From the IMG/VR virus record IMGVR_UViG_3300030330_001255: a stretch of DNA of 64,000 nucleotides, one strand, 5' to 3'. Shown here one piece after another: positions 4,391-64,000 of the stretch; position 1 is the stretch's first letter; the number at the start of each line of letters is the position of its first letter. The notes under the pieces were generated by a model. The model saw only the letters and a list, made by a program, of their open reading frames with translations, made no database searches and was not told where the DNA came from. Made by a program: the position numbers and the translations under genes. This DNA is from an uncultured virus (IMG/VR IMGVR_UViG_3300030330_001255). Lineage: Duplodnaviria > Heunggongvirae > Uroviricota > Caudoviricetes.

Positions 4391-4407
4391 TATTAAGGAT
4401 TTTATAA

Positions 4408-8710: not shown

Positions 8711-8715
8711 AAATT

Positions 8716-12317: not shown

Positions 12318-12318
12318 T

Positions 12319-36779: not shown

Positions 36780-37217
36780 ATGAGTAAAAAACCCTTAACC
36801 ATATCGGAGTCGGCAGCCGTGCAGATGCCTATGAAGACGGTTGCCTCTCTGATAATTATTNNNNNNNNNNTTGTGGCACTCGGCACCATGGGATATTTTC
36901 AGATCGTAGAACGTCTAAACATTGCAGACACTAGACTTCAGTTAATGGAAAAAGATCTAGAAGAGAATACAGAGTTTAGAATAAAATGGCCACGGGGTCA
37001 GATGGGATCGCTTCCCGCAGATTCTGAACAATTTATGATGATCGAGGATTTATATAAGACCACTGATAAATTAAATAAACATATAGAGTCAATGGCTTTA
37101 AATAAAGTGAACATCGAGTTTCTAACAAAACAGATGGACAAAGTTTTGAATGATATCGAAAAATTAAAAGACGCAAACAGAGATATTAAATACAATGGCA
37201 ACGGGACGAATAACTAA
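36780..37217 (+). CDS. Membrane-anchored coiled-coil protein (spans an N gap)
   Basis: N-terminal TM segment; WPRG motif. Confidence 0.6.
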   Translation: MSKKPLTISESAAVQMPMKTVASLIIIXXXXVALGTMGYFQIVERLNIADTRLQLMEKDLEENTEFRIKWPRGQMGSLPADSEQFMMIEDLYKTTDKLNKHIESMALNKVNIEFLTKQMDKVLNDIEKLKDANRDIKYNGNGTNN

Positions 37218-43513: not shown

Positions 43514-44077
43514 CTAATTAGTTTTGTCCTTTGGTCTCGCTCCCTGCATGATCAATGAACCGCTATCTCCTACCGCTTGTTTCAATGCTTTGCCTATTTT
43601 ACCAAGCATATCAACCTCTGACATAGAAGGCTTATTATTTTTATAGTCTTTGTGATCTACAACTCTCTCAAAGTTTGACCAATAGACTAGGCCAATATCA
43701 TAAGCATTATTACCTAACATACTCTTAGGAATATAATTGCTCTCCGATACGTGCCACTCTCCACCTTTATAGATGTAGATGTATTCAATCATAGTCGCAC
43801 CGCTATTCTCATACATCAAACAATATTCGTTGTTGTATGTTGCGGTATCATTGTGATTATCTCTGTCCCAATCTCTTTTATAGAAACTACACTCGTTTGT
43901 AGTTTTGCCAAGATATGAACAATCTCCATAATCAAATAACTTGATTGCTTTGTCATATGTTGCGTAATGCTCGACAAGTAATTTGCCGTTGCCCTCAACA
44001 TATCCATCTGAATGAACATAAATAGATTTAACATCTCTATTTGGTAGTTCAATCGCCACTAATGATCTAGTCGACAT
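43514..44077 (-). CDS. Hypothetical early protein (YxHxDGY family)
   Basis: MSTRS...IYVHSDGY; AAGGAG RBS; TTGACT promoter at ~44140. Confidence 0.75.
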   Translation of the reverse strand: MSTRSLVAIELPNRDVKSIYVHSDGYVEGNGKLLVEHYATYDKAIKLFDYGDCSYLGKTTNECSFYKRDWDRDNHNDTATYNNEYCLMYENSGATMIEYIYIYKGGEWHVSESNYIPKSMLGNNAYDIGLVYWSNFERVVDHKDYKNNKPSMSEVDMLGKIGKALKQAVGDSGSLIMQGARPKDKTN

Positions 44078-44186
44078 TTTTGTACTCCTTTATTTCTTTC
44101 ATTAATTATGTGGTATAATACCTTAAAATTAATAAGTCAAGAAATAATTTGAAATAATTTTACCGCTATGTTAATTCAATTATTAG

Positions 44187-44552
44187 ATGAAAAAAGAGAA
44201 GGATTTGATCAAAAAATTAAAGTCATCTACTCCTCAAATAGTGTGGGATAGGATAGAGAATTTGGCGGTTTCAGGCGTTCCTGATCTGTTGGGATACAAC
44301 AAAAATAATAAATTTTTTACCATTGAAACTAAATTAGCAAAAGTTAATTCAGTGACGTTTAGACCTCATCAAATTGCGTGGCATGTACGTCATCCTGTCA
44401 ATGCTTTCATCCTGCTTTTTTCACAGAGACACCGAACCGCGAAACTTTTTAAAAGTACATCGATCCACGATCTGCGGAAGCTAGGACACAAGGCCACCGA
44501 CCACGTTGCGCTGTCATTTGACGAAATAAACAAATATCTATTGTCGTTGTAA
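44187..44552 (+). CDS. VRR-NUC / Holliday junction resolvase-like nuclease
   Basis: E...RIE...GVPDL...IETK...HQIAW motifs. Confidence 0.75.
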   Translation: MKKEKDLIKKLKSSTPQIVWDRIENLAVSGVPDLLGYNKNNKFFTIETKLAKVNSVTFRPHQIAWHVRHPVNAFILLFSQRHRTAKLFKSTSIHDLRKLGHKATDHVALSFDEINKYLLSL

Positions 44553-44590
44553 TGGGGTGGGGAGCCCGTCTACCGACCCCCACCCCCCAT
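44552..44590. repeat. GC-rich element copy 1
   Basis: GGGTGGGG-AGCCCG-...-CCCCACCC. Confidence 0.85.
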
Positions 44591-44605
44591 GTTTCACGTG
44601 AAACA
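44590..44605. promoter_or_regulatory. parS: parS site (perfect consensus)
   Basis: TGTTTCACGTGAAACA. Confidence 0.8.
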
Positions 44606-44655
44606 ACGAACCACTGCTCGACCCAAAATGAACATATACAACTAAAAAGTGATTG

Positions 44656-44671
44656 ACACCATATCTTGTGT
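44656..44671. promoter_or_regulatory. NrdR-box-like palindrome
   Basis: ACACCATATCTTGTGT versus consensus acaCwAtATaTwGtgt. Confidence 0.6.
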
Positions 44672-44704
44672 GCGACAATCTGCGCATTTACATGGCCGTG
44701 GCTA

Positions 44705-44743
44705 GGTGTAGGGAGGGGAGCCCGTGCCCCACCCCCACCCAAT
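44705..44743. repeat. GC-rich element copy 2
   Basis: GGTGTAGGGAGGGGAGCCCGTGCCCCACCCCCACCCAAT. Confidence 0.85.
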
Positions 44744-44789
44744 ATATATCCCCCCTATTATCATCAGCCTTGCCTAAATAGGGGAGAAA

Positions 44790-45077
44790 GACCAGCTACA
44801 ATAGGTCTAATCTAGAATACTACAACGTTGTAGCTGATCTAAGATCAGTGGTGAGAACTCGCATTTCTGCATCATCTATACTCACTTTGCGGATCACTGA
44901 CCTAAGATCAGTAGACGTCAGTTTAAAACATCTTTCAATTCACCAGAACAATCTGGCCGCCTCTTCTACTGATCAGGGAAGAACTGACATCGATCTCTAA
45001 AGCGCATCGCAATTACTTGCATACGTCAGTCCTTCCCAGATCAGGGGGCGATTGTTCTCCTTTCATCGCCCCACTGA
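44790..45077 (-). ncRNA. Candidate five-domain tandem hairpin RNA
   Basis: Five adjacent stems joined at GATC/CTGA junctions; G-U pairs and GNRA loops favour the minus strand. Confidence 0.6.
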
Positions 45078-45082
45078 ATAGT

Positions 45083-45466
45083 TTAAGCACTCTTCTTAGT
45101 GTACCTCTTTAGCAAATCGTTAAGGTATCCTTGATCCTTTATCGTATCCTTGTTTCCGCCATAACCTACATCGTAGATTGTAACGTGAAGATCTTTGTCG
45201 TTTGACCGACAACGAACCTCGTAACGATAATCAAGGTCGCCATGCCTGTTGTAGTGTGAAGTAAGTCTTATGTCTCCCTCACCATTTTTGTTGGCTGCCA
45301 CGAAACTAGCGGCAAACTCATCTGCCTCGTATCGTGGTAACTTCCAAGCTCTGTCCTTTGCGAAAGAAATGTACTGAAGAGCGTTCTCAGGATAGCCGTC
45401 CCAATGTTTGTAAACGTGGTACGTTTCTCTACCATCTGAGAAGCTATATACTGCTCTTGTTCCCAT
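45083..45466 (-). CDS. Hypothetical early protein (YxHxDGYP family)
   Basis: MGTRA...VYKHWDGYP; related to 43514-44077. Confidence 0.75.
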   Translation of the reverse strand: MGTRAVYSFSDGRETYHVYKHWDGYPENALQYISFAKDRAWKLPRYEADEFAASFVAANKNGEGDIRLTSHYNRHGDLDYRYEVRCRSNDKDLHVTIYDVGYGGNKDTIKDQGYLNDLLKRYTKKSA

Positions 45467-45578
45467 AACTTTTCAACCTTTTTTCATTTTCCTTTCTTAC
45501 CGCATAAAACCATACAAATATGGCAACAATATGACGAACATAAAAAAATATTTTTTATTTTTTTCTTGACATACTGCA

Positions 45579-45623
45579 GGGTGTAGAGTTGGGGAGGGGA
45601 GCCCGTGGCCTACCCCCACCCAT
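45579..45623. repeat. GC-rich element copy 3
   Basis: GGGAGGGGAGCCCGTGGCCTACCCCCACCCAT. Confidence 0.85.
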
Positions 45624-45635
45624 ATAAAAAAATTT

Positions 45636-45672
45636 AAAAAAAATACTCACAACCAAAGGTTGTGAGTATTTT
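45636..45672 (-). terminator. Intrinsic terminator
   Basis: AAAATACTCACAACC-AAA-GGTTGTGAGTATTTT with an A-run on the plus strand. Confidence 0.75.
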
Positions 45673-45702
45673 GGCGGTGCCTATTTGTAGGTACTTGTTA
45701 AT

Positions 45703-46689
45703 TTAAGCCGCCATCTGTTGCCACGGCTGACTAATCAGCATCTGAGCAACTTTTATCTCACGGTCTCTATTCACATTATGAGACCCCGCATTTTTTCTGA
45801 TATCAGACATTTCATAATCTAATTCAGATTTTCTACTTCCAGGATTTACTTTTTTTAATCTTAATTCCTGGTTGTGTGTCGACCAATGCGTAGCCGCGTT
45901 ATACACGTCCCAAACTGAAGGTTGTTGCGCTGATCTAACTTGACCATCACATAGTCTAGCTGATTCACGCATTACATATTCAAGAACGGGCTCTGAGTGT
46001 GTAGCGTCTTGACCTAATGCTTTTTGTTTAAATGACTTAGGCTTAGACGCAATTGTTTTTTTAATGACATCTTCAACTTCAATCCATGAGACTTTTTTCT
46101 TAGTCCATTTTTTGAATTTCTCAATATCATTATTAAACATTTGAGACGCATTTTTAATTTTTGCAATTTCAGAAGAAATTGAAAAACCTGTCGTATGTTT
46201 TTTAGAAATGACCATAGCAAATTGACCACTTACTAATCCATTCATACAAACAAAATTCAACGCGCCAAACGCTGAGAACCACGGCCATGAACCATCAAAA
46301 GAGTTATATAGATCTAACTTCAACGCGATCTTTTCACCCTCTGATACTTCAAATTGGTAGTTGTTGAAAATAATTGATCTTCTAGCTTTTCTACCACCGT
46401 CTAAAATCTGATCAGTAATAGAAACATTAGAACAATCTATATTTTCAGTTAAAACCTCATTGTACTTTTCAAGAATTTCAAAAGTTGACTGAGGTTTATA
46501 TTTTTCAGAGTGTACACCTACAATAGATGAAGACTCACCCTGTTTGCCTTTTCTTACTAGTACTAACTTGTTCATGGCATTGTTACAAAATTCACCTTTG
46601 TTCACTGGGTCTCTAACTTCCAATGGCATTGGTACAACTTCGTAATCAAACGCTGACAAGTCAGTTATATTTTTATGTTTATTTTCCAT
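45703..46689 (-). CDS. DUF932-family protein
   Basis: GVHSEKYKP, NSFDGS, FVCMNGL, KHT and WDVYNAATHW motifs. Confidence 0.8.
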   Translation of the reverse strand: MENKHKNITDLSAFDYEVVPMPLEVRDPVNKGEFCNNAMNKLVLVRKGKQGESSSIVGVHSEKYKPQSTFEILEKYNEVLTENIDCSNVSITDQILDGGRKARRSIIFNNYQFEVSEGEKIALKLDLYNSFDGSWPWFSAFGALNFVCMNGLVSGQFAMVISKKHTTGFSISSEIAKIKNASQMFNNDIEKFKKWTKKKVSWIEVEDVIKKTIASKPKSFKQKALGQDATHSEPVLEYVMRESARLCDGQVRSAQQPSVWDVYNAATHWSTHNQELRLKKVNPGSRKSELDYEMSDIRKNAGSHNVNRDREIKVAQMLISQPWQQMAA

Positions 46690-46818
46690 AATATATCTTT
46701 CTAGTACCTACAAAATAGGCAAATAATGTATACACCAAATAACAAATAAAAAAAACATTTATTTGTTATTTAATAAAAAAAATTTAGTGTTGCATCTTTA
46801 CTACATTCCGAAATTGCA

Positions 46819-46931
46819 TAACTACATCTTGTGTGTACCCCGTACCCCCGACCACTATATGTTGATATAGGTCAACATTGCTGCCACTACATATTGTGTT
46901 GTAATTTTACCACACACACAACATATGGTGT
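46819..46931. promoter_or_regulatory. Four tandem NrdR-box-like palindromes
   Basis: Boxes start at 46819, 46852, 46884 and 46916 (spacing 33/32/32 bp). Confidence 0.7.
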
Positions 46932-46946
46932 TGCAAAAATATCACA

Positions 46947-46991
46947 GGTGCGTGAGGAGGGTGGGGAAGCCCGCGTCCCGCCCCCACCCAC
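46947..46991. repeat. GC-rich element copy 4
   Basis: GGGTGGGGAAGCCCGCGTCCCGCCCCCACCCA. Confidence 0.85.
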
Positions 46992-47008
46992 AAAAATAAA
47001 AAAATAAC

Positions 47009-47043
47009 AAAAAAAATGGAGGCGATCTTTAAACCGCCTCCAT
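47009..47043 (-). terminator. Intrinsic terminator
   Basis: ATGGAGGCG...CGCCTCCAT with an A-run; near-duplicate at 47597-47629. Confidence 0.8.
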
Positions 47044-47065
47044 CTGAAAGGATTCTGTAATCCCT

Positions 47066-47431
47066 TTATAGTGCTGATTTTTCTTGGGCTTTTCTTTCAA
47101 TAATCCCAAGTTTACGATTCATCCATCGTTTTCTAGTAAGTGAAGTTATCCAACCTCTGTTTGTAACTTCAATTTTTAGTCCAAGATTTCTTTCGAATAA
47201 TTGAACTAACTCACCGTTACTTGGGTTATTTTTAAGAAATGGCACTTGATAGATAAGATCTAAAAATCTAATTCTGAATAATATTTCAGGCATAGTCTTT
47301 CTAGAAATTTCATCTACACAAAGTGCCATTAGTACATGACCCACTGAATCAGCTTCTGCTCTTGCAGAAACTTTCTTAAACTCTACTTCGTTGTAGTGTT
47401 TAAGACCTGTATAGTGTATATATAACGCCAT
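47066..47431 (-). CDS. Hypothetical early protein
   Basis: GAAAGGA RBS before MALYIHY; has its own promoter. Confidence 0.7.
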   Translation of the reverse strand: MALYIHYTGLKHYNEVEFKKVSARAEADSVGHVLMALCVDEISRKTMPEILFRIRFLDLIYQVPFLKNNPSNGELVQLFERNLGLKIEVTNRGWITSLTRKRWMNRKLGIIERKAQEKSAL

Positions 47432-47450
47432 AGTTTTTTTCCTTTCTGTC

Positions 47451-47490
47451 TGGTACAATACCACACACAAATCTACTTTCAACAACTATT
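47451..47490 (-). promoter_or_regulatory. Putative early promoter with TGGTA-N3-TACCA palindrome
   Basis: TTGAAA-16-TATTGT; duplicated at 48370-48410. Confidence 0.65.
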
Positions 47491-47500
47491 TTAAGAAATG

Positions 47501-47530
47501 TGTCCATTTTGGGTTTGTCCATTTTGGGTT
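47501..47530. repeat. Tandem 15-bp repeat TGTCCATTTTGGGTT x2
   Basis: Direct repeat; related inverted copies at 44620 and 48419. Confidence 0.8.
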
Positions 47531-47544
47531 TATTAGCGAGACTA

Positions 47545-47584
47545 GGTGTGAGGGCGGGGAAGCCCGCCCCCTAACCCCACCAAT
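47545..47584. repeat. GC-rich element copy 5
   Basis: GGTGTGAGGGCGGGGAAGCCCGCCCCCTAACCCCACCAAT. Confidence 0.85.
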
Positions 47585-47596
47585 ATTTTTTTTATT

Positions 47597-47629
47597 AAAA
47601 AAATGGAGGCGACTTTTACATCGCCTCCA
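47597..47629 (-). terminator. Intrinsic terminator
   Basis: TGGAGGCGA...TCGCCTCCA with an A-run. Confidence 0.8.
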
Positions 47630-47656
47630 CTGGTCGGACAAGACCCGCGCGTCTTG

Positions 47657-48091
47657 CTACATCTTCGGAAAGTGTTCTTTCCAAAGTTGGTCTGCTCTCT
47701 TATGGATCGCTGGCCAATCAGGTTTGTTATTCCAGGTTCTATAGTTAGGTTGAACCGCTTTAACAAACTGGCTGATGATCCATTCTTTAGTAACAGGTCG
47801 AGTCATTAAATTATTAATGATCTTTTCCCATTTTTCTAAAGTTTTGTATCTAGGATATAATCTTACAATTCCTAGACCAGTAAATGGATCTACAAGTTCT
47901 ACCTTTTTGTAACCCGTTGGGATCAAAATTAATTCGCTTGTCCCGCCAGTTATTCTGGTAATCTTGTAACCAGATCCTCTTAACATCTTATTAAGCTGCC
48001 ATATACACAACCCGTGATCTGTCACACGTCTTTCGTGATATCTCGGTCTTGTCTTATACGGACGGTCTTCTTTGTCTGTTAAGTTTACCAT
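47657..48091 (-). CDS. Hypothetical early protein
   Basis: GAAAGG RBS before MVNLTDK. Confidence 0.65.
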   Translation of the reverse strand: MVNLTDKEDRPYKTRPRYHERRVTDHGLCIWQLNKMLRGSGYKITRITGGTSELILIPTGYKKVELVDPFTGLGIVRLYPRYKTLEKWEKIINNLMTRPVTKEWIISQFVKAVQPNYRTWNNKPDWPAIHKRADQLWKEHFPKM

Positions 48092-48133
48092 CTCTACCTT
48101 TCTGCGGGGGAATCTCACCCCCGCTATTTTTTG

Positions 48134-48346
48134 TTATGATTGCATTACAATCATGTGACTTGGTACTTCAATGGACGTAACAGAATAATATTTTGTCTTG
48201 TCCGTACTACCATCTTCTTTATTCAACGCATCAGCGATAGCTTTTGCCGTTGACTCATGTTCGAAACATTTGTGATCGAACACGGTTGTCATAGGTCGAC
48301 CGATGTGTCTTTTATCAGCGACTATAACCATATAAAGTTTTTCCAT
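48134..48346 (-). CDS. Hypothetical early protein
   Basis: AAGGAGG RBS. Confidence 0.75.
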   Translation of the reverse strand: MEKLYMVIVADKRHIGRPMTTVFDHKCFEHESTAKAIADALNKEDGSTDKTKYYSVTSIEVPSHMIVMQS

Positions 48347-48369
48347 ATATATTTCCTCCTTTCTTAATA

Positions 48370-48410
48370 TGGTACAATACCACAGCTAAATCTATATTCA
48401 ACAACTATTT
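48370..48410 (-). promoter_or_regulatory. Putative early promoter with TGGTA-N3-TACCA palindrome
   Basis: TTGAAT-16-TATTGT. Confidence 0.65.
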
Positions 48411-48434
48411 ACATAAACGACCCATTATGGACAC

Positions 48435-48450
48435 ATACTATATATGGTAT
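48435..48450. promoter_or_regulatory. NrdR-box-like palindrome
   Basis: ATACTATATATGGTAT. Confidence 0.5.
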
Positions 48451-48479
48451 ATGCACAGAACGCATAGCTAACCGACACA

Positions 48480-48520
48480 GGGTGGAGGGCGGGGCAAGCA
48501 CGCCCCCTAACCCCACCAAT
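48480..48520. repeat. GC-rich element copy 6
   Basis: GGGTGGAGGGCGGGGCAAGCACGCCCCCTAACCCCACCAAT. Confidence 0.85.
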
Positions 48521-48654
48521 AGAGGTACCAACACGATTTAAAAAATTGAACTTTTTTAAAATATAAATTATACATACTACAAAAGGGATCCTAATATTCT
48601 GTATATAGTGTAAGTTTTAGTTATAAACACAGGGGAAAAACTTTTTGGTTCCAT

Positions 48655-50124
48655 ATGACAATAGACATAGAGAAATTTGATAAATTACCAGACCCTGTCA
48701 AAAAAGAGTTTCAAAAAACATTATTACAGTGGCAAGAAAAATTAAAAGTAGAAAAGTGTCAAAAAAATTTTCTATCTTTTGTAAAACATGTCTGGCCTGA
48801 TTTTATTGAAGGCTATCATCATAAAGAAGTTGCAAAAAAATTTAATGAGATAGCAGAGGGCAAATTAAAAAGATTAATTATTAATATGCCACCTAGACAT
48901 ACGAAGTCTGAGTTTGCATCCGTATATCTTCCTGCATTCATGGTTGGTGTAAATCCAAAATTAAAAATTATACAAACGACCCACACTTCTGAACTCGCTA
49001 TCTTATTCGGTAGAAAAGCAAAGAACGTTATTGATTCACCTGAGTACAATGAAATATTTCAAACAAGACTACAAGAAGACTCAAAGGCCGCTGGTAAATG
49101 GCAGACAGCACAAGGCGGTGAATATTATGCTGCTGGTGTAGGTGGTGCGATTACAGGTCGTGGTGCAGATTTATTAATTATTGATGACCCACACTCAGAG
49201 CAAACTGTTCTATCTAAAGATTCTTTTGAACGTGCATACGAGTGGTATACATCAGGCCCCCGACAACGTTTACAACCAGGTGGTTCGATAATCGTGGTTA
49301 TGACACGTTGGTCTAAAAATGATTTGACTGGAGAACTATTAAAAGCACAATCTAATAAAAATTCTGACAAATGGGAGGTAATAGAGTTCCCTGCAATCAT
49401 GCCATCGGGTCGTGCTCTGTGGCCAGGTTATTGGAAGAAAGAAGAGTTAGATAAAGTTAAATCATCATTAAGTTTAAAAAAATGGAATGCACAATGGATG
49501 CAAAACCCTACATCAGAAGAAGGTGCAATATTAAAACGTGAGTGGTGGAAAAATTGGGAGAAGGAAGAATTACCACCGTTAGAACATGTCATACAATCAT
49601 ATGATACAGCTTTTTTAAAAAAAGAAACTGCTGATTACAGTGCAATAACAACATGGGGTGTGTTTACTTTAGAAGATAAAGGTAAACAATTAATATTAGT
49701 AGATAGTGTAAAAGGTCGATATGAGTTTCCAGAACTACGTAGATTGGCATTAGAACAATATAAATATTGGTCTCCAGAGACCGTTGTGATAGAATCAAAA
49801 GCATCAGGATTACCCCTGACTTTTGAACTTAGAAGGATGGGAATACCAGTTGTTACCTTTACACCAAGCAAAGGAAATGATAAACATGCGAGAGTAAACT
49901 CAGTTGCACCCCTTTTTGAGAGTGGTTGTATCTGGGCTCCAAAAAGAGAAGAATGGGCTCAAGAAGTTATAGAAGAATGCGCAGCTTTTCCTTTTGGTGA
50001 AAATGATGATTTGGTAGATAGTACAACACAAGCTGTCAAACGATTTAGGGAAGGGGGTCTTATAAATCACCCTGAAGATTATCAAGATAGTGCTTTACCT
50101 TCGTCAAAACATATTTATTATTGA
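48655..50124 (+). CDS. terL: Terminase large subunit
   Basis: MPPRHTKS, LLIIDDP, SYDTA, IESKASG and DDLVDS motifs. Confidence 0.95.
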   Translation: MTIDIEKFDKLPDPVKKEFQKTLLQWQEKLKVEKCQKNFLSFVKHVWPDFIEGYHHKEVAKKFNEIAEGKLKRLIINMPPRHTKSEFASVYLPAFMVGVNPKLKIIQTTHTSELAILFGRKAKNVIDSPEYNEIFQTRLQEDSKAAGKWQTAQGGEYYAAGVGGAITGRGADLLIIDDPHSEQTVLSKDSFERAYEWYTSGPRQRLQPGGSIIVVMTRWSKNDLTGELLKAQSNKNSDKWEVIEFPAIMPSGRALWPGYWKKEELDKVKSSLSLKKWNAQWMQNPTSEEGAILKREWWKNWEKEELPPLEHVIQSYDTAFLKKETADYSAITTWGVFTLEDKGKQLILVDSVKGRYEFPELRRLALEQYKYWSPETVVIESKASGLPLTFELRRMGIPVVTFTPSKGNDKHARVNSVAPLFESGCIWAPKREEWAQEVIEECAAFPFGENDDLVDSTTQAVKRFREGGLINHPEDYQDSALPSSKHIYY

Positions 50125-50279
50125 TGGTTAAAAAATTAACAAAAACGGTACCACCCAAATCAGGGCCAACACCACAAGGGTTGAATGTTCCACTAAAACA
50201 AGTTAAAACTGTAAGATTGGAGAAAATTAATGGCAGAAATAGACAAAGCACTTCCAAACGAAGTAACCAAAACTATTGA
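50124..50279 (+). CDS. Small hypothetical protein (not in ORF track)
   Basis: TVPPKSGPTPQGL; TGATG coupling. Confidence 0.5.
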   Translation: MVKKLTKTVPPKSGPTPQGLNVPLKQVKTVRLEKINGRNRQSTSKRSNQNY

Positions 50280-52635
50280 GATAGAGAAACCAGAGGAAGC
50301 AGCTGTAGAGGTTGTACAAGAACAAGAATCAATTCCTAACCCTGGAGAGGTTTCTGTCACTGAAAAAGAAGATGGTGGAGCCGAAGTAAATTTTGAACCA
50401 GGTGCCGTTAATCAACCAAACTCACAAGATCACTTTGATAACCTAGCAGAGATTTTACCAGAAGAAGTTTTACAACCATTAGGATCAGAATTAAATAAAC
50501 AATATTCAGACTATAGAGCATCAAGACAGGATTGGGAAAAATCTTATATTGAAGGTTTAGATCTTTTAGGATTTAAATATAACAATAGAAGTGAACCTTT
50601 CAAAGGTGCATCGGGAGTAACTCACCCCGTACTTGCAGAAGCAGTTACACAATTTCAAGCACAAGCATATAAAGAATTATTACCAGCTGATGGCCCAGTT
50701 AGAACTAGAATTATTGGTGCCATAACTACACAACGTGAAGAACAATCACAACGTGTTCAGGAATTTATGAATTATCAACTCATGTACAAGATGAAAGAAT
50801 ATGAACCTGAGTTTGATCAAATGCTGTTCTACCTACCGCTAAGTGGATCAGCATTTAAAAAAGTTTACTATGATGATTTATTAGGCAGAGCCGTTTCTAA
50901 ATTTGTACCTGCAGATGATTTAGTGGTGCCATATTCTGCTACATCATTAGATGATGCAGATGCTGTTATGCATGTAATTAAAGTTTCTGAAAACGATTTA
51001 CGTAAACAACAAGTTGCAGGTTTTTATAGAGATGTAGAATTACCAGATACTTACAATCAAGAATCAGAAGTTGATAAAAAAGAAAAAGAACTTGCAGGTG
51101 AAAAGAGAACTGTAAATGAAAATATTTATACTTTGATCGAGTGCCATGTTAATTTAGACCTAGAAGGTTTTGAAGATAGATTAGATGATGGAACACTGAC
51201 AGGAATTAAACTTCCATATATTGTAACTATAGAAGAAGCATCAAGACAGGTTTTATCTATTAGAAGAAACTATCAACCGAACGATAATCTTAAAAAGAAG
51301 ATATCTTACTTTGTACATTTTAAATTTTTACCAGGTTTAGGATTTTATGGTTTTGGATTAATTCACATGATAGGTGGTTTATCAAGAACAGCGACCACTG
51401 CCCTTCGACAATTGTTAGATGCAGGAACTTTATCAAACTTACCTGCAGGGTTTAAGATGCGTGGTATAAGAATCAGAGATGATGCGCAATCAATACAACC
51501 AGGTGAGTTTAGAGATGTAGATGCACCAGGTGGTAATCTGAGAGAAGCGTTTATGACTTTACCATTTAAGGAACCATCAACCACGCTCCTTCAACTAATG
51601 GGAGTTGTAGTTCAAGCAGGTCAACGATTCGCGAGTATTGCTGATATGCAAGTGGGCGATGGTAATCAAAGAAGTGCAGTGGGTACAACTATGGCATTAT
51701 TGGAACGTGGTTCGAGGGTTATGTCAGCGATCCACAAAAGAATGTACGTTGGTCTAAAACAAGAGTTTGAGTTATTAGGTAAATGTTTTGCAACATACCT
51801 ACCTGCTGCTTATCCGTATGACGTGGTCGGTGGTTCGAGGTTTATTAAGATACAAGATTTTAACGAGAACATAGATATACTTCCTGTTGCAGATCCAAAC
51901 ATATTTTCACAAACACAAAGAATCACATTAGCACAGACAGAATTACAGTTAGCGAGTTCGCAACCTAAAATGCATAATCTATACAATGCATATCGTCAGA
52001 TGTATGAGGCGTTAGGTGTAAAAAATATAGATCGTATTCTACCAAGACCTGCACCACAGGGGCCAAAAGATCCAGCGTTAGAACACATTGATGCGTTATC
52101 TGGTAAACCTTTCAAAGCAATGCGTGGTCAGGATCATAGAGCACACATGACAGCACACTTAACTTTTATGTCAACTAATATTGCAAGAAATAATCCTATG
52201 GTTATGGCAGCATTAGATAAAAATATCTTAGAACATATCAGTCTGATGGCACAGGAACAGACAGAATTAGAATATGCGGATAGATTACAGATGTTACAAA
52301 AAGATCCTGCATTAATGCAGAAGTTTGAGGCAGACAAAGCTAAGGTTGTGGCTGAGATCATGGAGGATTTTGCTAAAGAGGAGAAGAAAATCACATCACA
52401 ATTCGATAATGACCCTATTGCGAAGTTAAGATCCAGAGAATTAGACATCAGACAGATGGAAAACTTTAGAAGAGGTCAGGAAGATAAGGATAGATTAGAG
52501 TTAGATCGATTAAAAACCCTATTGAATCAGATGAATCAAGAGGAGAAACGTGAGCAGAACGAAGATTTAGCTAATTTACGTGCAGATACCTCTATTCAAA
52601 AGACGATATTAACTAAAACAATACCTAGTAATTAA
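50230..52635 (+). CDS. Portal protein
   Basis: 801 aa after terL; GSAFKKVYYD and PGLGFYGFGLIH motifs. Confidence 0.88.
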   Translation: MAEIDKALPNEVTKTIEIEKPEEAAVEVVQEQESIPNPGEVSVTEKEDGGAEVNFEPGAVNQPNSQDHFDNLAEILPEEVLQPLGSELNKQYSDYRASRQDWEKSYIEGLDLLGFKYNNRSEPFKGASGVTHPVLAEAVTQFQAQAYKELLPADGPVRTRIIGAITTQREEQSQRVQEFMNYQLMYKMKEYEPEFDQMLFYLPLSGSAFKKVYYDDLLGRAVSKFVPADDLVVPYSATSLDDADAVMHVIKVSENDLRKQQVAGFYRDVELPDTYNQESEVDKKEKELAGEKRTVNENIYTLIECHVNLDLEGFEDRLDDGTLTGIKLPYIVTIEEASRQVLSIRRNYQPNDNLKKKISYFVHFKFLPGLGFYGFGLIHMIGGLSRTATTALRQLLDAGTLSNLPAGFKMRGIRIRDDAQSIQPGEFRDVDAPGGNLREAFMTLPFKEPSTTLLQLMGVVVQAGQRFASIADMQVGDGNQRSAVGTTMALLERGSRVMSAIHKRMYVGLKQEFELLGKCFATYLPAAYPYDVVGGSRFIKIQDFNENIDILPVADPNIFSQTQRITLAQTELQLASSQPKMHNLYNAYRQMYEALGVKNIDRILPRPAPQGPKDPALEHIDALSGKPFKAMRGQDHRAHMTAHLTFMSTNIARNNPMVMAALDKNILEHISLMAQEQTELEYADRLQMLQKDPALMQKFEADKAKVVAEIMEDFAKEEKKITSQFDNDPIAKLRSRELDIRQMENFRRGQEDKDRLELDRLKTLLNQMNQEEKREQNEDLANLRADTSIQKTILTKTIPSN

Positions 52636-57800: not shown

Positions 57801-58706
57801 ATGGCTATATCACGATCACAGCTAGTTAAAGAACTAGAGCCAGGTTTAAATGCTTTATTCGGCCTGGAATACAAAAGATACGAGAATCAACACGCTGATA
57901 TTTACGACATTGAAAATTCAGACAGAGCGTTCGAAGAAGAAGTAATGCTTTCTGGATTTGCTAATGCGCAAGTCAAAGCAGAAGGTCAAGGTGTATCATT
58001 CGATGATGCTCAAGAGACTTTCACTTCTCGTTATAACCACGAAACCATAGCACTTGGATTCGCAATCACTGAAGAAGCGATTGAGGATAACTTGTATGAC
58101 AGACTTGCGTCTAGATATACAAAGGCTTTAGCAAGATCTATGGCAAACACTAAGCAGGTAAAAGCTGCCGCTGTGTTGAACAACGCATTTAATGCTGCAA
58201 ACGCAGGTGGAGATGGTAAGGAGTTATGCGCTACTGATCACCCAACTGTTGCAGGTACATTTTCAAATGAGTTGGCAACTTCAGCAGATCTTAATGAAAC
58301 ATCATTGGAACAGGCGTTAATTGATATTAATGCAATGACCGATGAAAGAGGAATGAAGATCGCGGCTAGAGGAGTGAAAATGATCATTCCAAGTGAACTT
58401 CAGTTTACTGCAGAAAGACTTATGAAGTCTGCAAATAGAACTGGAACTGCTGACAATGATATCAATGCAATTGGTTCAATGGGTATGATCCCACAAGGTT
58501 ATGTTATTAATAACTTTTTAACTGACCCAGATGCGTTTTTCATTAAAACAGACATACCAAATGGTATGAAAATGTTTGTCAGAGCACCAATCAAAACTGC
58601 GATGGAAGGTGATTTCGACACTGGTAATGTTAGATACAAAGCTAGAGAGAGATATTCTTTTGGATTCTCAGACCCTAGAGGTATTTTTGGCTCACCAGGT
58701 GCGTAA
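57801..58706 (+). CDS. Major capsid protein
   Basis: MAISRSQLVKELEPGLNALFG, ITEEAIEDNLY; strong RBS and downstream terminator. Confidence 0.9.
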   Translation: MAISRSQLVKELEPGLNALFGLEYKRYENQHADIYDIENSDRAFEEEVMLSGFANAQVKAEGQGVSFDDAQETFTSRYNHETIALGFAITEEAIEDNLYDRLASRYTKALARSMANTKQVKAAAVLNNAFNAANAGGDGKELCATDHPTVAGTFSNELATSADLNETSLEQALIDINAMTDERGMKIAARGVKMIIPSELQFTAERLMKSANRTGTADNDINAIGSMGMIPQGYVINNFLTDPDAFFIKTDIPNGMKMFVRAPIKTAMEGDFDTGNVRYKARERYSFGFSDPRGIFGSPGA

Positions 58707-58725
58707 TATCTGATAACCATATATT

Positions 58726-58755
58726 TAGGGGGCGAGCAATCGCCCCCTTTTTTTG
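58726..58755 (+). terminator. Intrinsic terminator after MCP (copy 2)
   Basis: GGGGGCGA-GCAA-TCGCCCCC followed by a T-run. Confidence 0.9.
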
Positions 58756-58765
58756 TCTTAAAATT

Positions 58766-59038
58766 ATGGAAAAAAAGTTTAAAGTCAAAATATTTGCCTA
58801 CGGCTATTTTATGCAATTTAATGTATTTTGCAGAGATTCAGCAATTAGTATAGAAAATGCTATTATTGACAAAATCCGAAAAAATGATATAAAAATTGAG
58901 TATAACACATTTTACGATAATAAATCGTTACGTGTAACATACGAGGAGGTATATCATGGTGGCAATGCTTCAAACGAAGATAGACAACCTTTACCAAAAA
59001 AAGAAATCTCTAGATCAGAAATGGGACGAAGAACATAA
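58766..59038 (+). CDS. Homolog of 369-638
   Basis: High amino-acid identity. Confidence 0.65.
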   Translation: MEKKFKVKIFAYGYFMQFNVFCRDSAISIENAIIDKIRKNDIKIEYNTFYDNKSLRVTYEEVYHGGNASNEDRQPLPKKEISRSEMGRRT

Positions 59039-59141
59039 TAAAGAAAATAAATACACTTTAAATATGGTCAAAATTGATAGAGAGATTCAAATTTTAATTG
59101 GAAAAATTAAATCTGCAGAAACAGAACTAGCAAAATTTTAG
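58956..59141 (+). CDS. Homolog of 559-741
   Basis: High amino-acid identity. Confidence 0.7.
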   Translation: MVAMLQTKIDNLYQKKKSLDQKWDEEHNKENKYTLNMVKIDREIQILIGKIKSAETELAKF

Positions 59142-59215
59142 TTCTTAACTTTAAAAATTTAATTTTATTCCCAAGGATTTCTTGCGCTTTTCAAAAAATT
59201 TATATATATTTAACT

Positions 59216-59286
59216 TATCATACAACTAACCAGAACATAGACTAGTATGATAGACGACCTAGAGACTATGTTCGTTAATTACTAGG
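59216..59286 (+). ncRNA. Candidate pseudoknotted leader RNA (copy 2)
   Basis: One substitution relative to 816-886. Confidence 0.5.
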
Positions 59287-59296
59287 AGTATATAAA

Positions 59297-59572
59297 ATGG
59301 CAAATACTACATTCAAAGGCCCAGTAACATCGATCAACGGATTTATTGGTGGCCCAAATAAAAATGCAGGTGACACGCAACAAGGTGGAAAAAACACTTA
59401 TTCAATTGGTGCGAACTCAACTGAAGTAACAGATGGTACAAATACATTAACTGCAGCAGGAAACGAAGGCGTTTTAATTTATGTGGATAATGGTGCTGCT
59501 GGTGCAAAAGTATATGCTTTTTCAGATGGAACAAACTGGAAAAGAGTAGATACGCTTGCTAATATTTCATAA
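59297..59572 (+). CDS. Homolog of 898-1176
   Basis: Amino-acid similarity. Confidence 0.7.
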   Translation: MANTTFKGPVTSINGFIGGPNKNAGDTQQGGKNTYSIGANSTEVTDGTNTLTAAGNEGVLIYVDNGAAGAKVYAFSDGTNWKRVDTLANIS

Positions 59573-59620
59573 TTTTTATAGGAGCCTTTCGAGGCTCCTT
59601 AAAATTTAAAGGAGAAAAAA

Positions 59621-59935
59621 ATGGCAGGTGGTGGATCGTTTTCAAGTGATCAAAAGTTTACAACTTTAACAGCAGATGGTAATTTTAAAACTATCACTGG
59701 TGGTGGAACTAATTTAGGCCCTTGTAGAGTTACATACATAACGGCACATGGAGTGGCAAACTCTGTTGTAAAATTACATGATGGAACTTCAAATGCAGGA
59801 TCATTAGAATTTCAAGCTAAATTTAGCACGGAAGGATTAGATGTTTTTGTACCTGGTTCAGGAATTAGATTCAAAGAAGGAGTCTTTTTAGATTTAACTA
59901 ACACAGATTCCGTAACAATAGGATACACAGGATAA
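59621..59935 (+). CDS. Homolog of 1224-1535
   Basis: Amino-acid similarity. Confidence 0.7.
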   Translation: MAGGGSFSSDQKFTTLTADGNFKTITGGGTNLGPCRVTYITAHGVANSVVKLHDGTSNAGSLEFQAKFSTEGLDVFVPGSGIRFKEGVFLDLTNTDSVTIGYTG

Positions 59936-60204
59936 TGAAAAGTGATGTAAAAGCAGTAAGAAAAACATCAACAGGAAATGTTTTTGGTGGAAGAACAAGA
60001 CTTAGAGGAATTATTTTATCTTCTAATGGAGGTGCAGGATCTGTAACTTTACAAGATGGTAATTCAGTAACTCAGTTTCAAGCTGATGTTCCAAACGGAG
60101 ATGTTTTTTCATATAACTTAGCAGAGGATGGAATTGTATTTGAAGGTGGCATGACTATATCGGCTATGTCAAATGCAATTGTTACTGTTATAATAGATAA
60201 ATAG
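59935..60204 (+). CDS. Homolog of 1535-1804
   Basis: Amino-acid similarity. Confidence 0.7.
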   Translation: MKSDVKAVRKTSTGNVFGGRTRLRGIILSSNGGAGSVTLQDGNSVTQFQADVPNGDVFSYNLAEDGIVFEGGMTISAMSNAIVTVIIDK

Positions 60205-60212
60205 GAGGTTAA

Positions 60213-61160
60213 ATGGCAAACACTACCTCTGGTACAAATGTTTTTGAAAAAGGTTTTTCTATTGCTGACATAGTTGAAGAATCCTATGAAAGAATAGGAA
60301 TGCAAGGTGTTTCTGGTTATCAATTAAAAAGTGCCAGACGTTCTTTAAATATCATGTTTCAAGAGTGGGGTAATAGAGGGCTTCACTACTGGGAAGTTAA
60401 TAATACATCACTAACTTTAGCAACAAATCAAAAAGAATATGAAATATTTAGATCTTCATCTGAAGGTGATTCCAATGGTGTTACTACAACCATAACATCA
60501 AACATTGCAAATAATGTTACAACCATACCAGTTGCTTCAGTAAACAATATGCCAACATCTGGTAAAATAAAAATTAATAATGAAATAATTTCATACACAG
60601 GAATATCTTCTTTAAATTTAACAGGTGCAACAAGAGGAGTGGATGGAACTACAGCGCAAGCACATTTAAGTTCAGGCCCAGTAACTAATTTTGTTAATGG
60701 TGCCGATGATATTTTAGAAGCTGTTTATAGAAATGTGTCATCTGGATCAGATGATATAGATGTATCTTTAAATAAAATTTCTAGATCAGAGTATCAAGCG
60801 TTATCTAATAAAAGTTCTACAGGACAACCAACACAATATTATGTTCAAAGATTTATAGATAGAATTAAAATAACTTTATACCTAACACCAGGAACTTCTG
60901 AAAATGGAAAATTTTTAAATTTTTATTATGTAAAAAGAATACAAGATGCAGGTGGTTATACAAACGATGCAGACGTGCCTTATAGATTTGTCCCTTGTAT
61001 GATTGCAGGTTTATCTTACTACCTATCACAAAAATTTGCACCAGAGAGAATACAAAACATGAAATTATTATACGAAGATGAATTAAATAGAGCGCTATCA
61101 GAAGATGGATCTTCTACTAGTTCTTACATAACACCTAAAATTTATTACCCAGGAGCATAA
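60213..61160 (+). CDS. Adaptor-like protein, homolog of 1813-2751
   Basis: Amino-acid similarity. Confidence 0.7.
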   Translation: MANTTSGTNVFEKGFSIADIVEESYERIGMQGVSGYQLKSARRSLNIMFQEWGNRGLHYWEVNNTSLTLATNQKEYEIFRSSSEGDSNGVTTTITSNIANNVTTIPVASVNNMPTSGKIKINNEIISYTGISSLNLTGATRGVDGTTAQAHLSSGPVTNFVNGADDILEAVYRNVSSGSDDIDVSLNKISRSEYQALSNKSSTGQPTQYYVQRFIDRIKITLYLTPGTSENGKFLNFYYVKRIQDAGGYTNDADVPYRFVPCMIAGLSYYLSQKFAPERIQNMKLLYEDELNRALSEDGSSTSSYITPKIYYPGA

Positions 61161-61654
61161 TGGCAAATCAATCATCAGGAAAATACTCAAAAGCCATATC
61201 AGATAGATCAGGTATGGAGTTTCCATATAAAGAAATGGTTAAAGAATGGAACGGTTCCTTTGTGCATATATCTGAGTTTGAAGCTAAACACCCACAATTA
61301 GAAATAAAACCACATGCCTCTGACCCTCAAGGTTTAAGAGATGCTAGACCAGATAGAACAGAAACTGCAGTTCCAAATTTATTACCGTTGAATCCATTTA
61401 AAATAACAAATGGCAGCACAACTATTGTTGTTAGTGAACCAAATCATGGTAGATCTACAGGTAATACAGTTAGATTTAGAAACACAACTAATGTAGGAAA
61501 TGTTACATCTGCAACGATTACTCAAGCTGCAGGGTATACAATTACAAAAGTTAATGATAATACTTATAATTTTACAACTGGAACAACAGCTTCTAGTACG
61601 TTACAAGGAGGAGGTGGACTTGCTTCAGCAGGCCCAGTTAATATTACAGCATAA
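61160..61654 (+). CDS. Homolog of 2751-3245
   Basis: Amino-acid similarity. Confidence 0.7.
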   Translation: MANQSSGKYSKAISDRSGMEFPYKEMVKEWNGSFVHISEFEAKHPQLEIKPHASDPQGLRDARPDRTETAVPNLLPLNPFKITNGSTTIVVSEPNHGRSTGNTVRFRNTTNVGNVTSATITQAAGYTITKVNDNTYNFTTGTTASSTLQGGGGLASAGPVNITA

Positions 61655-62325
61655 TGGCATACACTTTAACAAACCTACAAGATGATATTAGAAATTATAC
61701 AGAAGTTGATAGTTCTGTATTGTCTACTACCATTTTAACTACAATTATTAAAAACGCTGAAAACAGAATTTATAGAGAAGTAGACTCTGATGATAATAGA
61801 TTTTATGCAACATCTAATTTAGCTGTTGGTAATAGATATGTAACAATACCCTCTGATCTAAGAATAATTAGATATGTGCAATTAAAAGATTCAAATAATA
61901 ATCAAGTATTTTTAGAAAAAAGAGATACTAGTTTTATGACAGAATATTATAATACTCCATCTACAGCTGATGGTTTACCTAAATATTATGCTAATTGGGA
62001 TGCTAATTTTTGGGTTGTAGCACCAACTCCTGATCAAACTTATCAGATAACATTGGCTTATGTAAAGCAACCAGAGAGTTTAACAACTAAAACATCTGGA
62101 ACATATGTTTCAAATAAATACCAAGATTTGCTTTTATATGCTGCCCTAGTAGAAGCGTATGGGTACTTGAAAGGCCCCTCAGATATGTTACAATACTACG
62201 AACAGTCTTATCAAAGAGCAATACAATCGTACGCGGTTGAGCAACAAGGCCGTAGACGCCGAGACGAATATAATGATGGTGTTATTCGTACTCCACTTAA
62301 ATCAGAATCACCGTCTAAATATTAA
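61654..62325 (+). CDS. Adaptor / tubular A-like protein, homolog of 3245-3934
   Basis: Amino-acid similarity. Confidence 0.7.
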   Translation: MAYTLTNLQDDIRNYTEVDSSVLSTTILTTIIKNAENRIYREVDSDDNRFYATSNLAVGNRYVTIPSDLRIIRYVQLKDSNNNQVFLEKRDTSFMTEYYNTPSTADGLPKYYANWDANFWVVAPTPDQTYQITLAYVKQPESLTTKTSGTYVSNKYQDLLLYAALVEAYGYLKGPSDMLQYYEQSYQRAIQSYAVEQQGRRRRDEYNDGVIRTPLKSESPSKY

Positions 62326-62336
62326 GGAGATATAAC

Positions 62337-62789
62337 ATGGCAAACATAGTACCTAATTCTTTCAAGTCTGGATTGTTAAAAGGAACTTTTAACTTCGACA
62401 CTTCAGGTAATGGAGGAAATGAGTTTAAGTGTGCCTTATATACAGCTATCACAGGATACAGTATAACTTCTACTACTTTTCAAGCTGGAGTTGGTAATAA
62501 TGAAGTAAACCCTTCAGGAACAGGTTATACTGCTGGTGGACTAGCTCTAACAAATACTGGAGTTGATGGAACAACCGCAACGTCTTTTACAGATTTTGGT
62601 GATTTAACTTTTCCATCAGTTTCATTAACTGCTAGAGGAGCTGCAATATATAAGTCAACTGGTGGCGGAAATGAATTAGTTCTAGTGTTAGACTTTGGTG
62701 GAAATAAAACGGCAACGAATGGTGATTTCGTCATTCAGTTTCCTTCAAATACTACATCAAGTGCTATTATTAGAATTGGCGACGCGTAA
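62337..62789 (+). CDS. Homolog of 3947-4390
   Basis: Amino-acid similarity. Confidence 0.7.
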   Translation: MANIVPNSFKSGLLKGTFNFDTSGNGGNEFKCALYTAITGYSITSTTFQAGVGNNEVNPSGTGYTAGGLALTNTGVDGTTATSFTDFGDLTFPSVSLTARGAAIYKSTGGGNELVLVLDFGGNKTATNGDFVIQFPSNTTSSAIIRIGDA

Positions 62790-62806
62790 TATTAAGGATT
62801 AAATAA

Positions 62807-63262
62807 ATGGCTTTTGTATTAAATGACAGAGTTAAACAGACAAGTACATCTACTGGAACTGCTACTATTAGTTTAACAGGAACAGAAGTTGGTTTCGAAA
62901 CTTTTGTTGCAGGTATTGGTGACACTAATAATACTTTCTATTGTATTTCACATGATGGTACAGCTGATTTTGAAGTCGGTATTGGTACAGTAACTGATTC
63001 AGCTACTGATACACTTTCTAGAGATACCGTTATCTCCTCTTCAAATTCAGATAACAAAGTGAATTTTCAAGCAGGAACTAAAACTGTGTTTTGTACTTAT
63101 CCTGCAAAGAGAGCTCCGTCTGCAGCTATGACAGCCACAACTTACGTAACAACACACTCTTCTACTATTTCTGATGTTCAAACAATGGACTCAGGAGTTT
63201 TAGCGGGCCCTGTAACCGTATCAGGTACAGTAACAGTAACAGGTAATTTAGTAATTATATAA
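62807..63262 (+). CDS. Homolog of 4408-4863
   Basis: Amino-acid similarity. Confidence 0.7.
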   Translation: MAFVLNDRVKQTSTSTGTATISLTGTEVGFETFVAGIGDTNNTFYCISHDGTADFEVGIGTVTDSATDTLSRDTVISSSNSDNKVNFQAGTKTVFCTYPAKRAPSAAMTATTYVTTHSSTISDVQTMDSGVLAGPVTVSGTVTVTGNLVII

Positions 63263-64000
63263 TGAGTACAATAGAAGTAGATAAGATACAGCCACAATCA
63301 GGAACTAATTTACAAATTGGTGAAGCTGGCGATAGTTTAACATTTCAAAATAGTGTTATTCCAAACTCTGCTTTAGCAAACGGTCAAATTACAATTAATG
63401 GTGTATCTGTAAATTTAGGTGGATCAGCTACGATACCAACTGAAACACAACCTGTTATATCTAGTTTTACACCTACAGTTATTGATGCAGACGTTGGTGG
63501 TACTATAACTATTACAGGACAAAATTTTGCATCTATACCAAAAGTAGAATTACAAAGAGCAAACGGTGCATTTCAATCTGCAACATCGGTTACATTTACA
63601 AGTGCAACAACAATAAGTTTTACAACTGGCACAGCTGGTTTAACAAATGGACAAAACGTTAGAATTTTAGTTACAAACCCAGATGGTAATGCAGCTAGAA
63701 GTTCATCAGATTTAACAGTATCTGATGGCCCTGCATTTACAACGACATCGCTTCCTGACGGTTCAGCAGGCACATCTTATTCACAAAATATAGATGTAAC
63801 TGGAGACAGTGCTGTAACTATTTCACAATCAGTTGTATCTGGATCTTTACCGCCAGGAATAACTATTGGAACAACATCAAATCCATCAGGATCAACATAC
63901 AGAGCAGTAATATCAGGGACTTTACCAAGTCCTGCTAGTGAAACAACATATAGTTTTACTGTTAGAGCAACAGACGCTCAAGGACAAACAACTGACCAAG
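63262..64000 (+). CDS. Ig-domain tail fibre protein, truncated by the window end
   Basis: MSTIEVDKIQPQSGTNLQIGEAGD start resembles 4863; body resembles 6554-7345 (GQITING, NPDGNA, FTVRATDA). Confidence 0.7.
   Translation, partial: MSTIEVDKIQPQSGTNLQIGEAGDSLTFQNSVIPNSALANGQITINGVSVNLGGSATIPTETQPVISSFTPTVIDADVGGTITITGQNFASIPKVELQRANGAFQSATSVTFTSATTISFTTGTAGLTNGQNVRILVTNPDGNAARSSSDLTVSDGPAFTTTSLPDGSAGTSYSQNIDVTGDSAVTISQSVVSGSLPPGITIGTTSNPSGSTYRAVISGTLPSPASETTYSFTVRATDAQGQTTDQ

Follow-up and report, generated by a model that had tools for sequence, protein, structure and literature searches.

The window analysed here comprises 64,000 nucleotides (nt) of an uncultured virus (Caudoviricetes; IMGVR_UViG_3300030330_001255). 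Between the conserved core gene p121 (44187..44552, plus strand) and the gene for the large terminase, terL (48655..50124, plus strand), with which the rightward structural block begins, it contains a region of small genes and repeated non-coding modules that also carries an exact copy of parS, the centromere site of the likely host. This region (44552-48520) consists, on the minus strand, of four leftward cassettes with one layout each: a GC-rich element is followed by operator-like boxes, an extended -10 promoter, a ribosome-binding site with one or two open reading frames (ORFs) and a hairpin with a T-run as terminator. The coding share of 44553-48654 is about 58%. A first-pass annotation had described the repeated layout over 4 kb and the parS, and had read the region as a binding platform for host factors. 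The observation was confirmed, and the interpretation was partly supported.

By terL and the portal gene (50230-52635), the closest deposited phages are Pelagibacter phage HTVC027P and phage 023Pt_psg01. The phage is a podovirus-type pelagiphage with an SU10-like portal, and the order exonuclease, terS (minus strand), small genes, terL (plus strand) is common to the window and both phages. Because of the terL and portal similarity and this common gene order, the window is assigned to the HTVC023P-type pelagiphages, and SAR11 is therefore the likely host. As a sample of relatives, 80 loci around TerL relatives were taken out of at least 598, and 11 of them were close relatives with a TerL identity of 87-98%. 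The region was found in at least 10 DNA runs, each with half or more of the sampled words, and is therefore not an assembly artefact; the nearest virus record compared (G001) does not contain it.

Cassettes, shared modules and gene exchange

Read leftward, cassette 1 (47657..48346) holds the two ORFs o70 (48134-48346) and o144 (47657-48091) with a hairpin (48104-48124) between them. Upstream lies promoter P1 (48371..48450), which includes an inverted box B (48420-48432) and a palindromic box (48435-48450), and downstream the intrinsic terminator T2 (47602..47631). Cassette 2 carries o121 (47066..47431) between promoter P2 (47452..47482, TTGAAA ... TGGTATTGT), of which P1 is a repeat, and the intrinsic terminator T3 (47014..47045), a repeat of T2. 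Cassette 3 encodes a DUF932/TIGR03299-like phage-plasmid protein (45703..46689), preceded by a conserved operator and promoter region (46800..46945) with an extended -10 at 46901-46915 and weaker repeats downstream, and followed by an intrinsic terminator (45640..45672) from the scan for terminator-like sites. Cassette 4 contains o127 (45083..45466), a member of a viral ORFan family. All these features lie on the minus strand.

The duplication of promoters (47451 and 48370) and terminators (47009 and 47597) between cassettes, already noticed in the first-pass annotation, held up on measurement: between the promoter copies (47451-47498 and 48370-48417) identity is 83% in 48 nt, and between the terminator copies (47010-47042 and 47597-47629) it is 88% in 33 nt. 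Terminator-like sites numbered 10 against 2.9 expected, including those on the minus strand at 47045-47014, 47631-47602 and 45672-45640. An extended -10 motif (TGTGGTAWWRT) gave 12 matches against 2.93 expected. The four matches with 0 or 1 mismatch each stand before a gene, at 44108 on the plus strand (the p121 promoter, 44108-44122) and at 46901, 47452 and 48371 on the minus strand. The family is restricted to 44.1-48.4 kb, and the motif was not found in the HTVC027P locus.

Junctions in gene content were identified by pairwise BLAST, with six relatives compared by eye and no statistical test. In two relatives (L003 and L004) precisely 47043-47596 is missing, which lies between the terminator repeats and comprises the whole of cassette 2. 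Three others (L005-L007) keep the terminator, the hairpin 48104-48124 and the promoter and have o144 and o70 replaced by other ORFs, and in L002 only o70 is swapped, with the linkers kept. The left conserved block ends at 44754-44758, just past GC-rich element 2, in six of six spanning relatives (L002, L005-L007, L009 and L012), and an RNA-library contig departs from the window sequence at 44759 and continues as the L009 variant. On the right, the conserved block resumes at about 48450, just before GC-rich element 6 at the right border of the region. These comparisons showed that short non-coding modules are common to cassettes and genomes and that gains, losses and swaps of ORFs end on them. 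The modules would thus provide the homology at which recombination exchanges genes.

Among these modules, the GC-rich elements have no counterpart elsewhere in the window: 30-nt windows with at least 80% G+C form six groups in the 64 kb (at about 44555, 44711, 45592, 46959, 47552 and 48488), all within 44555-48520 and in a single orientation. Element 1 (44555..44588) is an imperfect inverted repeat of a G-arm and a C-arm adjoining parS, and the others lie at 44711..44741, 45592..45622, 46959..46989, 47552..47582 and 48488..48520 (elements 2 to 6). A profile built from the six (nhmmer) found 44 copies, all on one strand, of which 38 belong to 10 close loci and six to the window, and none in the other 152 of the 162 loci searched. 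Conserved blocks are GGGNGGGG, AGCCCG or AGCACG, and CCCCACC. In more distant clades this place is taken by different GC-rich inverted repeats, for example GTGGGCGGGACCCACCC adjoining parS, and hairpins 180-240 nt before terL. A G-quadruplex was considered and rejected, as four G-runs on the minus strand are found in some copy classes only and the distant-clade version GTGGGCGGGACCCACCC has two.

These elements might act in RNA or transcription, not in recombination, by backing up terminators, insulating cassettes or stabilising transcripts. On either strand all six fold into hairpins of -18 to -26 kcal/mol, because a G-rich arm precedes a C-rich arm. On the transcribed strand, elements 3, 4 and 5 each follow an intrinsic terminator at a distance of 15-20 nt, and one RNA-library contig, in which DNA carry-over is possible, spans terminator T3 and element 4. 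However, covariation was absent over 29 distinct copies (RNAalifold -0.03 kcal/mol, 0 compensatory pairs, 0 of 4 predicted pairs), and a conserved hairpin was rejected on this ground. The z-scores of folding were modest (-0.8 to -3.1) and mostly within 2 standard deviations of shuffles, the orientation is fixed to the genome even beside the oppositely transcribed p121, and no U-tract lies 3' of the hairpin on the transcribed strand. Conservation of sequence blocks, and not of pairing, points to recognition of the element as DNA. A role in RNA or transcription is unlikely, though not implausible.

The operator-like boxes fall into two families. NrdR-like boxes were scored against a working NrdR consensus. 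With up to 3 mismatches, 7 matches were counted in the window against 2.84 expected, and five of the seven lie in 44656-48611 (binomial P 2e-5). Of the six such boxes first reported, three good ones with 2 mismatches (44656, 46884 and 46916) and two weak ones could be counted, not six. The first (44656-44671) is placed in the spacer of a conserved promoter-like site on the plus strand (44653..44681, TTGACA ... GACAAT/CAATCT); it varies across relatives only at degenerate positions of the palindrome, and its orthologue in L002 agrees with the working consensus at 16/16 positions. The other two (46884-46899 and 46916-46931) flank the extended -10 of cassette 3 with starts 32 nt apart, and conservation among seven genomes is 84% in the 270 nt that precede the DUF932 gene. 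For NrdR boxes a spacing rule of 31-32 bp is given in the available part of the published description (PMC2892513).

On the host side, NrdR (TIGR00244, over the cut-off) was found in four of five SAR11 genomes, the miss being a partial genome of 0.9 Mb, and the SAR11 nrd promoter has two boxes of the type ACAAC...GTTGT, 31 nt apart. A matrix from 30 SAR11 nrd box-B sites gave the region boxes only 8.4, 3.9 and 3.9 bits, which is below matches elsewhere in the window. Binding by host NrdR is possible: spacing, promoter position and the presence of NrdR in SAR11 would fit it, but the host-matrix scores are low. The palindromic boxes are probably operators for the cassette promoters, and might be bound by host NrdR or by a phage protein. 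As a marker of the region the matrix was discarded, as its best matches (16927 and 1563) lie outside it; the best of all (16927, minus strand, 19.1 bits, ATACATCATATTGTTGTTT) is found at a gene junction in the structural block. In the SAR11 loci L361-L394, the 130 nt upstream of the gene for the large subunit of ribonucleotide reductase (RNR) additionally contain a strongly conserved tandem ATGTTCT...ATGTTCTATTG besides two NrdR-type boxes.

The second family, box B (GTYCATWWTGGGT), has 4 copies against 0.69 expected, a number reached in 0 of 100 shuffles, and bears out the earlier mention of a further motif family. Apart from the inverted copy in P1, it is found as GTTCATTTTGGGT at 44621..44633 (minus strand) and as two tandem copies at 47502..47529 (plus strand).

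parS on the phage and in the host

The strongest result of the analysis is parS. The sequence TGTTTCACGTGAAACA at 44590..44605 is canonical at 16/16 positions, with 2.2e-5 exact matches expected by chance, and the perfect parS seen in a spacer by the first-pass annotation was thereby verified. Among the 80 loci sampled around TerL relatives, 16 have parS with at most one mismatch, 11 of them a perfect copy, where 0.011 would be expected. It appears in two contexts with unrelated flanks. In the close clade it lies about 40 nt after p121, where the 16-mer is invariant save for one outer base in L009 and the flanks vary; in a clade whose TerL is about 66% identical, terL follows it at about 120 nt and p121 is about 3 kb off.

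Named SAR11 genomes, reached by a scan with a 16S probe, contained in five of five cases one ParB (ParB_N) and one parS about 1.5 kb away, perfect in three and with one outer mismatch in two. Exactly one parS at up to 1 mismatch was present in 40 of 61 SAR11-family genomes, many of them partial, and in none were there two. Adjacency of ParA and ParB is conserved across Pelagibacter genomes according to the available part of a preprint. On the phage side, a Pfam search of the 84 window ORFs revealed no ParB, NrdR or RNR, in line with the early remark that the unit has no recognisable parB, nrdR or nrd gene. Five phage relatives, of which four are complete or almost complete, likewise yielded no ParB_N, with the control matched in 11 of 14 genomes. 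Because of these two negative results, host ParB is taken as the probable binder of the phage parS. A site for a host protein is the best reading of the phage parS, and the exact copy of the host site suggests that the phage recruits a host DNA-binding protein.

To this, at least 137 loci were added when viral contigs were scanned blindly for perfect copies of the parS 16-mer, and 80 of them were taken further. Eleven of the 80 have the TerL or portal of the window's family, with a G+C content of 0.37-0.55. By Pfam, many of the parS-bearing contigs were phi29-like, others T7-like (portals), and two were microviruses (L091 and L119). ParB_N was detected in only two of 50 parS-bearing viral records tested (loci L083-L162), which suggests that viral contigs commonly carry a host-type parS and no phage ParB. 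Two phages of about 51-53% G+C carry five-copy parS arrays within about 0.8 kb (L106:2501-3288 and L146:2501-3428). A complete genome of 59.7 kb and 44% G+C (G003, the genome of L141) has perfect parS sites at 3643, 3799 and 10943 and no ParB_N; its sole similarity to the window is a weak tblastx match to the small-terminase region.

The first-pass annotation had proposed that the region acts as a decoy or landing pad in place of auxiliary metabolic genes; worked out in detail, replicating parS and NrdR-like boxes would soak up host ParB and NrdR and de-repress host RNR. The lack of RNR, NrdR and ParB among the window ORFs would fit this idea, as would NrdR in most SAR11 genomes and a host with one ParB and a single parS, which any replicating parS-bearing DNA would therefore outnumber. 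Moreover, infection with HTVC027P raises host nrdA 3.1-8.9 fold and nrdB 2.5-5.8 fold, according to the available part of that study (PMC12753301). However, the HTVC027P genome contains no NrdR-consensus box at up to 2 mismatches, and since host nrdAB is induced all the same, no decoy is required; the drain of deoxynucleoside triphosphates alone accounts for the rise, and the same portion of the study reports this response for many phage infections (PMC12753301). The boxes in and beside promoters of phage genes have the ordinary geometry of regulation, not of a sink, and the host nrd matrix scores them low. A loose pattern of the GC-rich element matched in 0 of 61 SAR11-family genomes, and box B gave 16 matches against 11 control matches in 41 of them. 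Both were therefore rejected as host sequences, and nothing marks either as a site for a host protein. The broader claim that the sites serve host proteins is thus supported for parS, which equals the single centromere of the host in a phage without detected ParB_N, and not for the GC-rich element or box B. Titration of ParB would follow automatically if ParB binds, because the host has only one site, but need not be the selected function. The decoy in place of metabolic genes was not borne out and is regarded as very unlikely.

Least likely of all is that the 16-bp palindrome serves a phage protein, for instance as a packaging signal for the small terminase, with its identity to parS incidental: parS does lie 3-120 nt upstream of terL in a series of loci (L058, L061, L065, L067, L068, L072, L077, L078, L093, L110, L120, L123 and L144), and L106 and L146 have their five perfect copies just upstream of a distant terL, in L106 with an Sf6-type terS on the far side of the array, but all 16 positions are canonical and identical to the only site of the host chromosome, the sequence is kept in phages of G+C 0.37-0.55 with presumably different hosts, in the window's clade it is separated from terL by 4 kb and from terS by 3.3 kb, and the blind scan also returned the many phi29-like contigs, for which binding of host Spo0J is published (available part of PMC2731898).

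Neighbouring genes, hairpin array and expression

The left border gene p121 has 73 homologues with conserved D33, E47 and K49. Its structural model (predicted local distance difference score, pLDDT, 88.8) matched archaeal Hjc resolvases best in the PDB (2wcz_A, E 6.5e-4, template-modelling score 0.56), and p121 is accordingly predicted as a PD-(D/E)xK nuclease with an Hjc-like Holliday-junction-resolvase fold. With this fold and the conserved D, E and K, a link to the cutting of cruciforms is conceivable. Such resolvases are also ordinary packaging helpers.

The cassette ORFs gave little in family searches: NCBIfam returned nothing for seven of eight ORFs scanned, the DUF932 protein alone matching TIGR03299 below the cut-off, and o127 matched unnamed viral clusters only. 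A common N-terminal motif, T-R-x-[VL] ... Y-x-H-x-D-G-Y, was noticed in o127 and in o187 (43514-44077); the two have the appearance of paralogues from a single family of viral ORFans (phrog_1987 for o187).

Downstream (3') of o127 lies a hairpin array of 330 nt with many CTGATC arms (44756..45085). Its folding is far beyond that of shuffles on both strands (z -5.0 on the minus and -6.1 on the plus strand; 0 of 100 shuffles as good), which agrees with the structured array of the first-pass annotation; a role as RNA is conjectural. Rfam had no match in the window, and within 44400-48700 gave only hits of E 0.15-0.97, far below gathering. The arms CTGATCAGGGAAGAACTGAC and GTCAGTYCTTCCCAGATCAG and a hairpin GGGGCGA..TCGCCCC are kept in L002, L005, L006 and L009, and the loop between the arms varies in length and sequence. 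The array contains 7 GATC sites in 330 nt, compared with 3.8 per kb in the window.

Contigs from RNA libraries of three studies cover parts of o127, the DUF932 gene, o121 and o144/o70. They give no strand, transcript ends or level, DNA carry-over is possible, and they lend weak support to expression of the cassette ORFs. The stretches that no such contig covers (44100-44560 and 47488-47936) carry no information. In the available part of the HTVC027P transcriptome study, gp35 and gp38, just upstream of terL, are classed as early with very high transcripts per million, TerS and TerL are late, and the phage has no RNA polymerase of its own and relies on that of the host (PMC12753301). By analogy in position and promoter type, the region is probably an early region.

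Outside the region, window positions 1-4942 and 58397-63340 are 84% identical and hold the same structural-gene block. The window is therefore longer than one unit of about 58.4 kb, and its overlapping ends are two diverged strains joined, or a chimeric concatemer, and not the same strain. Two 10-nt runs of N are present (9841-9850 and 36861-36870), and a search for transfer RNA genes found none. The consecutive gene pairs at 7355-9771 and 10959-13362 have the same domains (Laminin_G_3, then DUF7483) and look like a tandem duplication of tail-fibre-like genes.

Interpretation and known systems

Taken together, the region is most readily understood, with a probability of roughly 0.6, as a hyperplastic accessory-gene region of an HTVC023P-type pelagiphage that is built of module-bounded cassettes and carries a host parS bound by host ParB. 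It would occupy the interval between the Hjc-like resolvase gene p121 and terL. Host RNA polymerase would read the small ORFan genes leftward from an extended -10 promoter that is used repeatedly; intrinsic terminators, likewise reused, would close them, and a GC-rich inverted-repeat element specific to the phage would separate them, with the shared modules serving as homology for recombinational gene exchange. Host ParB would bind the phage parS as in Bacillus phage phi29. Binding might position or partition unintegrated phage DNA, spreading ParB might silence or time the adjacent promoters, or host segregation might be disturbed as a by-product.

Several results weigh against this reading. 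Swap junctions of ORFs are often at ORF edges and not on the GC-rich element itself, and for this reason any role of the element itself is putative; its lack of covariation and modest folding scores, given above, belong here as well. The promoter calls rest on the repeated extended -10 motif because a generic sigma-70 scan was not enriched (8 sites against 15.1 expected) and flagged in the region only 47482-47455. Neither HTVC027P, its early genes included, nor 023Pt_psg01 has homologues of the cassette ORFs. The designation as early rests on position, and the early genes of HTVC027P run rightward whereas those of the region run leftward. parS itself is patchy: with 1 mismatch allowed, it is missing from 10 of 22 loci with a p121 homologue, and with 2 allowed, from the complete genome 023Pt_psg01. 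HTVC027P has a single parS-like site, with 1 mismatch, and this is found inside the coding sequence of p121, where a conserved peptide partly predisposes to it. This site (L081:4814-4829, record 16412-16427) falls in the codons of a PHQxAxHVxH motif in an unannotated p121 homologue (L081:4663-4929).

A bolder version is unlikely. The most abundant known group of SAR11 phages would have captured the only centromere of its host, and host ParB would either partition unintegrated genomes to the daughter cells of slowly growing SAR11, giving a carrier state without lysogeny genes, or time the adjacent early and late promoters as a copy-number-sensitive clamp; p121 would cut cruciforms of the GC-rich elements, which would then be dedicated sites of recombination in an integrase-free, integron-like exchange of cassettes.

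Compared with integron gene cassettes, which are defined by an integrase together with attC sites, the region differs: no integrase or recombinase family was found among the 84 window ORFs, and the GC-rich element is without conserved pairing. A closer likeness is offered by the promoter-early stem-loop (PeSL) elements of T4-like phages. In the available part of their description, a hyperplastic region with core genes on either side has its ORFan genes interspersed with recurring small composite sequences of terminator and promoter, and it is at these motifs that indels and replacements in close relatives end, as in the window (PMC4122927). On the other hand, the window belongs to a different phage family, HTVC023P-type and not a T4-like myovirus, its module sequences are unrelated, its promoter is the extended -10 described above, and it has an additional sequence-conserved GC-rich inverted repeat that this part of the PeSL description does not mention (PMC4122927). 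The region is therefore best classed, by analogy, as a PeSL analogue and not as a PeSL member. Module-bounded cassette exchange would then extend the PeSL principle to an unrelated and ecologically dominant phage family.

The palindromic boxes resemble the NrdR operators of nrd genes, as far as the available part of their description goes, in being 16 bp long, in forming a tandem pair 32 nt apart and in overlapping a promoter (PMC2892513). They differ in preceding a DUF932 gene and not an nrd gene, in a window without RNR, and in departing from the SAR11 nrd type.

With the chromosomal ParABS system of SAR11 the phage shares a 16-bp sequence identical to the single host parS, but on a genome without parA or parB. 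In the literature searched on HTVC023P-type phages parS was not mentioned, and nothing was found that combined parS, bacteriophage and 'host ParB'; in a preprint on persistent virulent phages, ParB appears only as a filter hit. A host centromere site on phage genomes would offer a concrete handle on the interaction of SAR11 with its phages, and would bear on the persistence of virulent phages in oligotrophic hosts that grow slowly.

The nearest precedent is phi29. According to the available part of the published work, this phage has five parS sites, which host Spo0J binds, as well as promoters with Spo0A boxes, and it uses the parS sites to bring its genome into the spore (PMC2731898). Both are then virulent phages that carry a host parS without a ParB of their own, and in both, operator-like sites, in the window possibly those of a host regulator, lie at phage promoters (PMC2731898). 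The differences are that the window phage has one site, that SAR11 does not sporulate, that the phages are unrelated and that NrdR is only a candidate regulator in the window phage, compared with Spo0A in phi29 (PMC2731898). If parS without a phage ParB is as widespread as the viral contigs suggest, the case of phi29 would be generalised.

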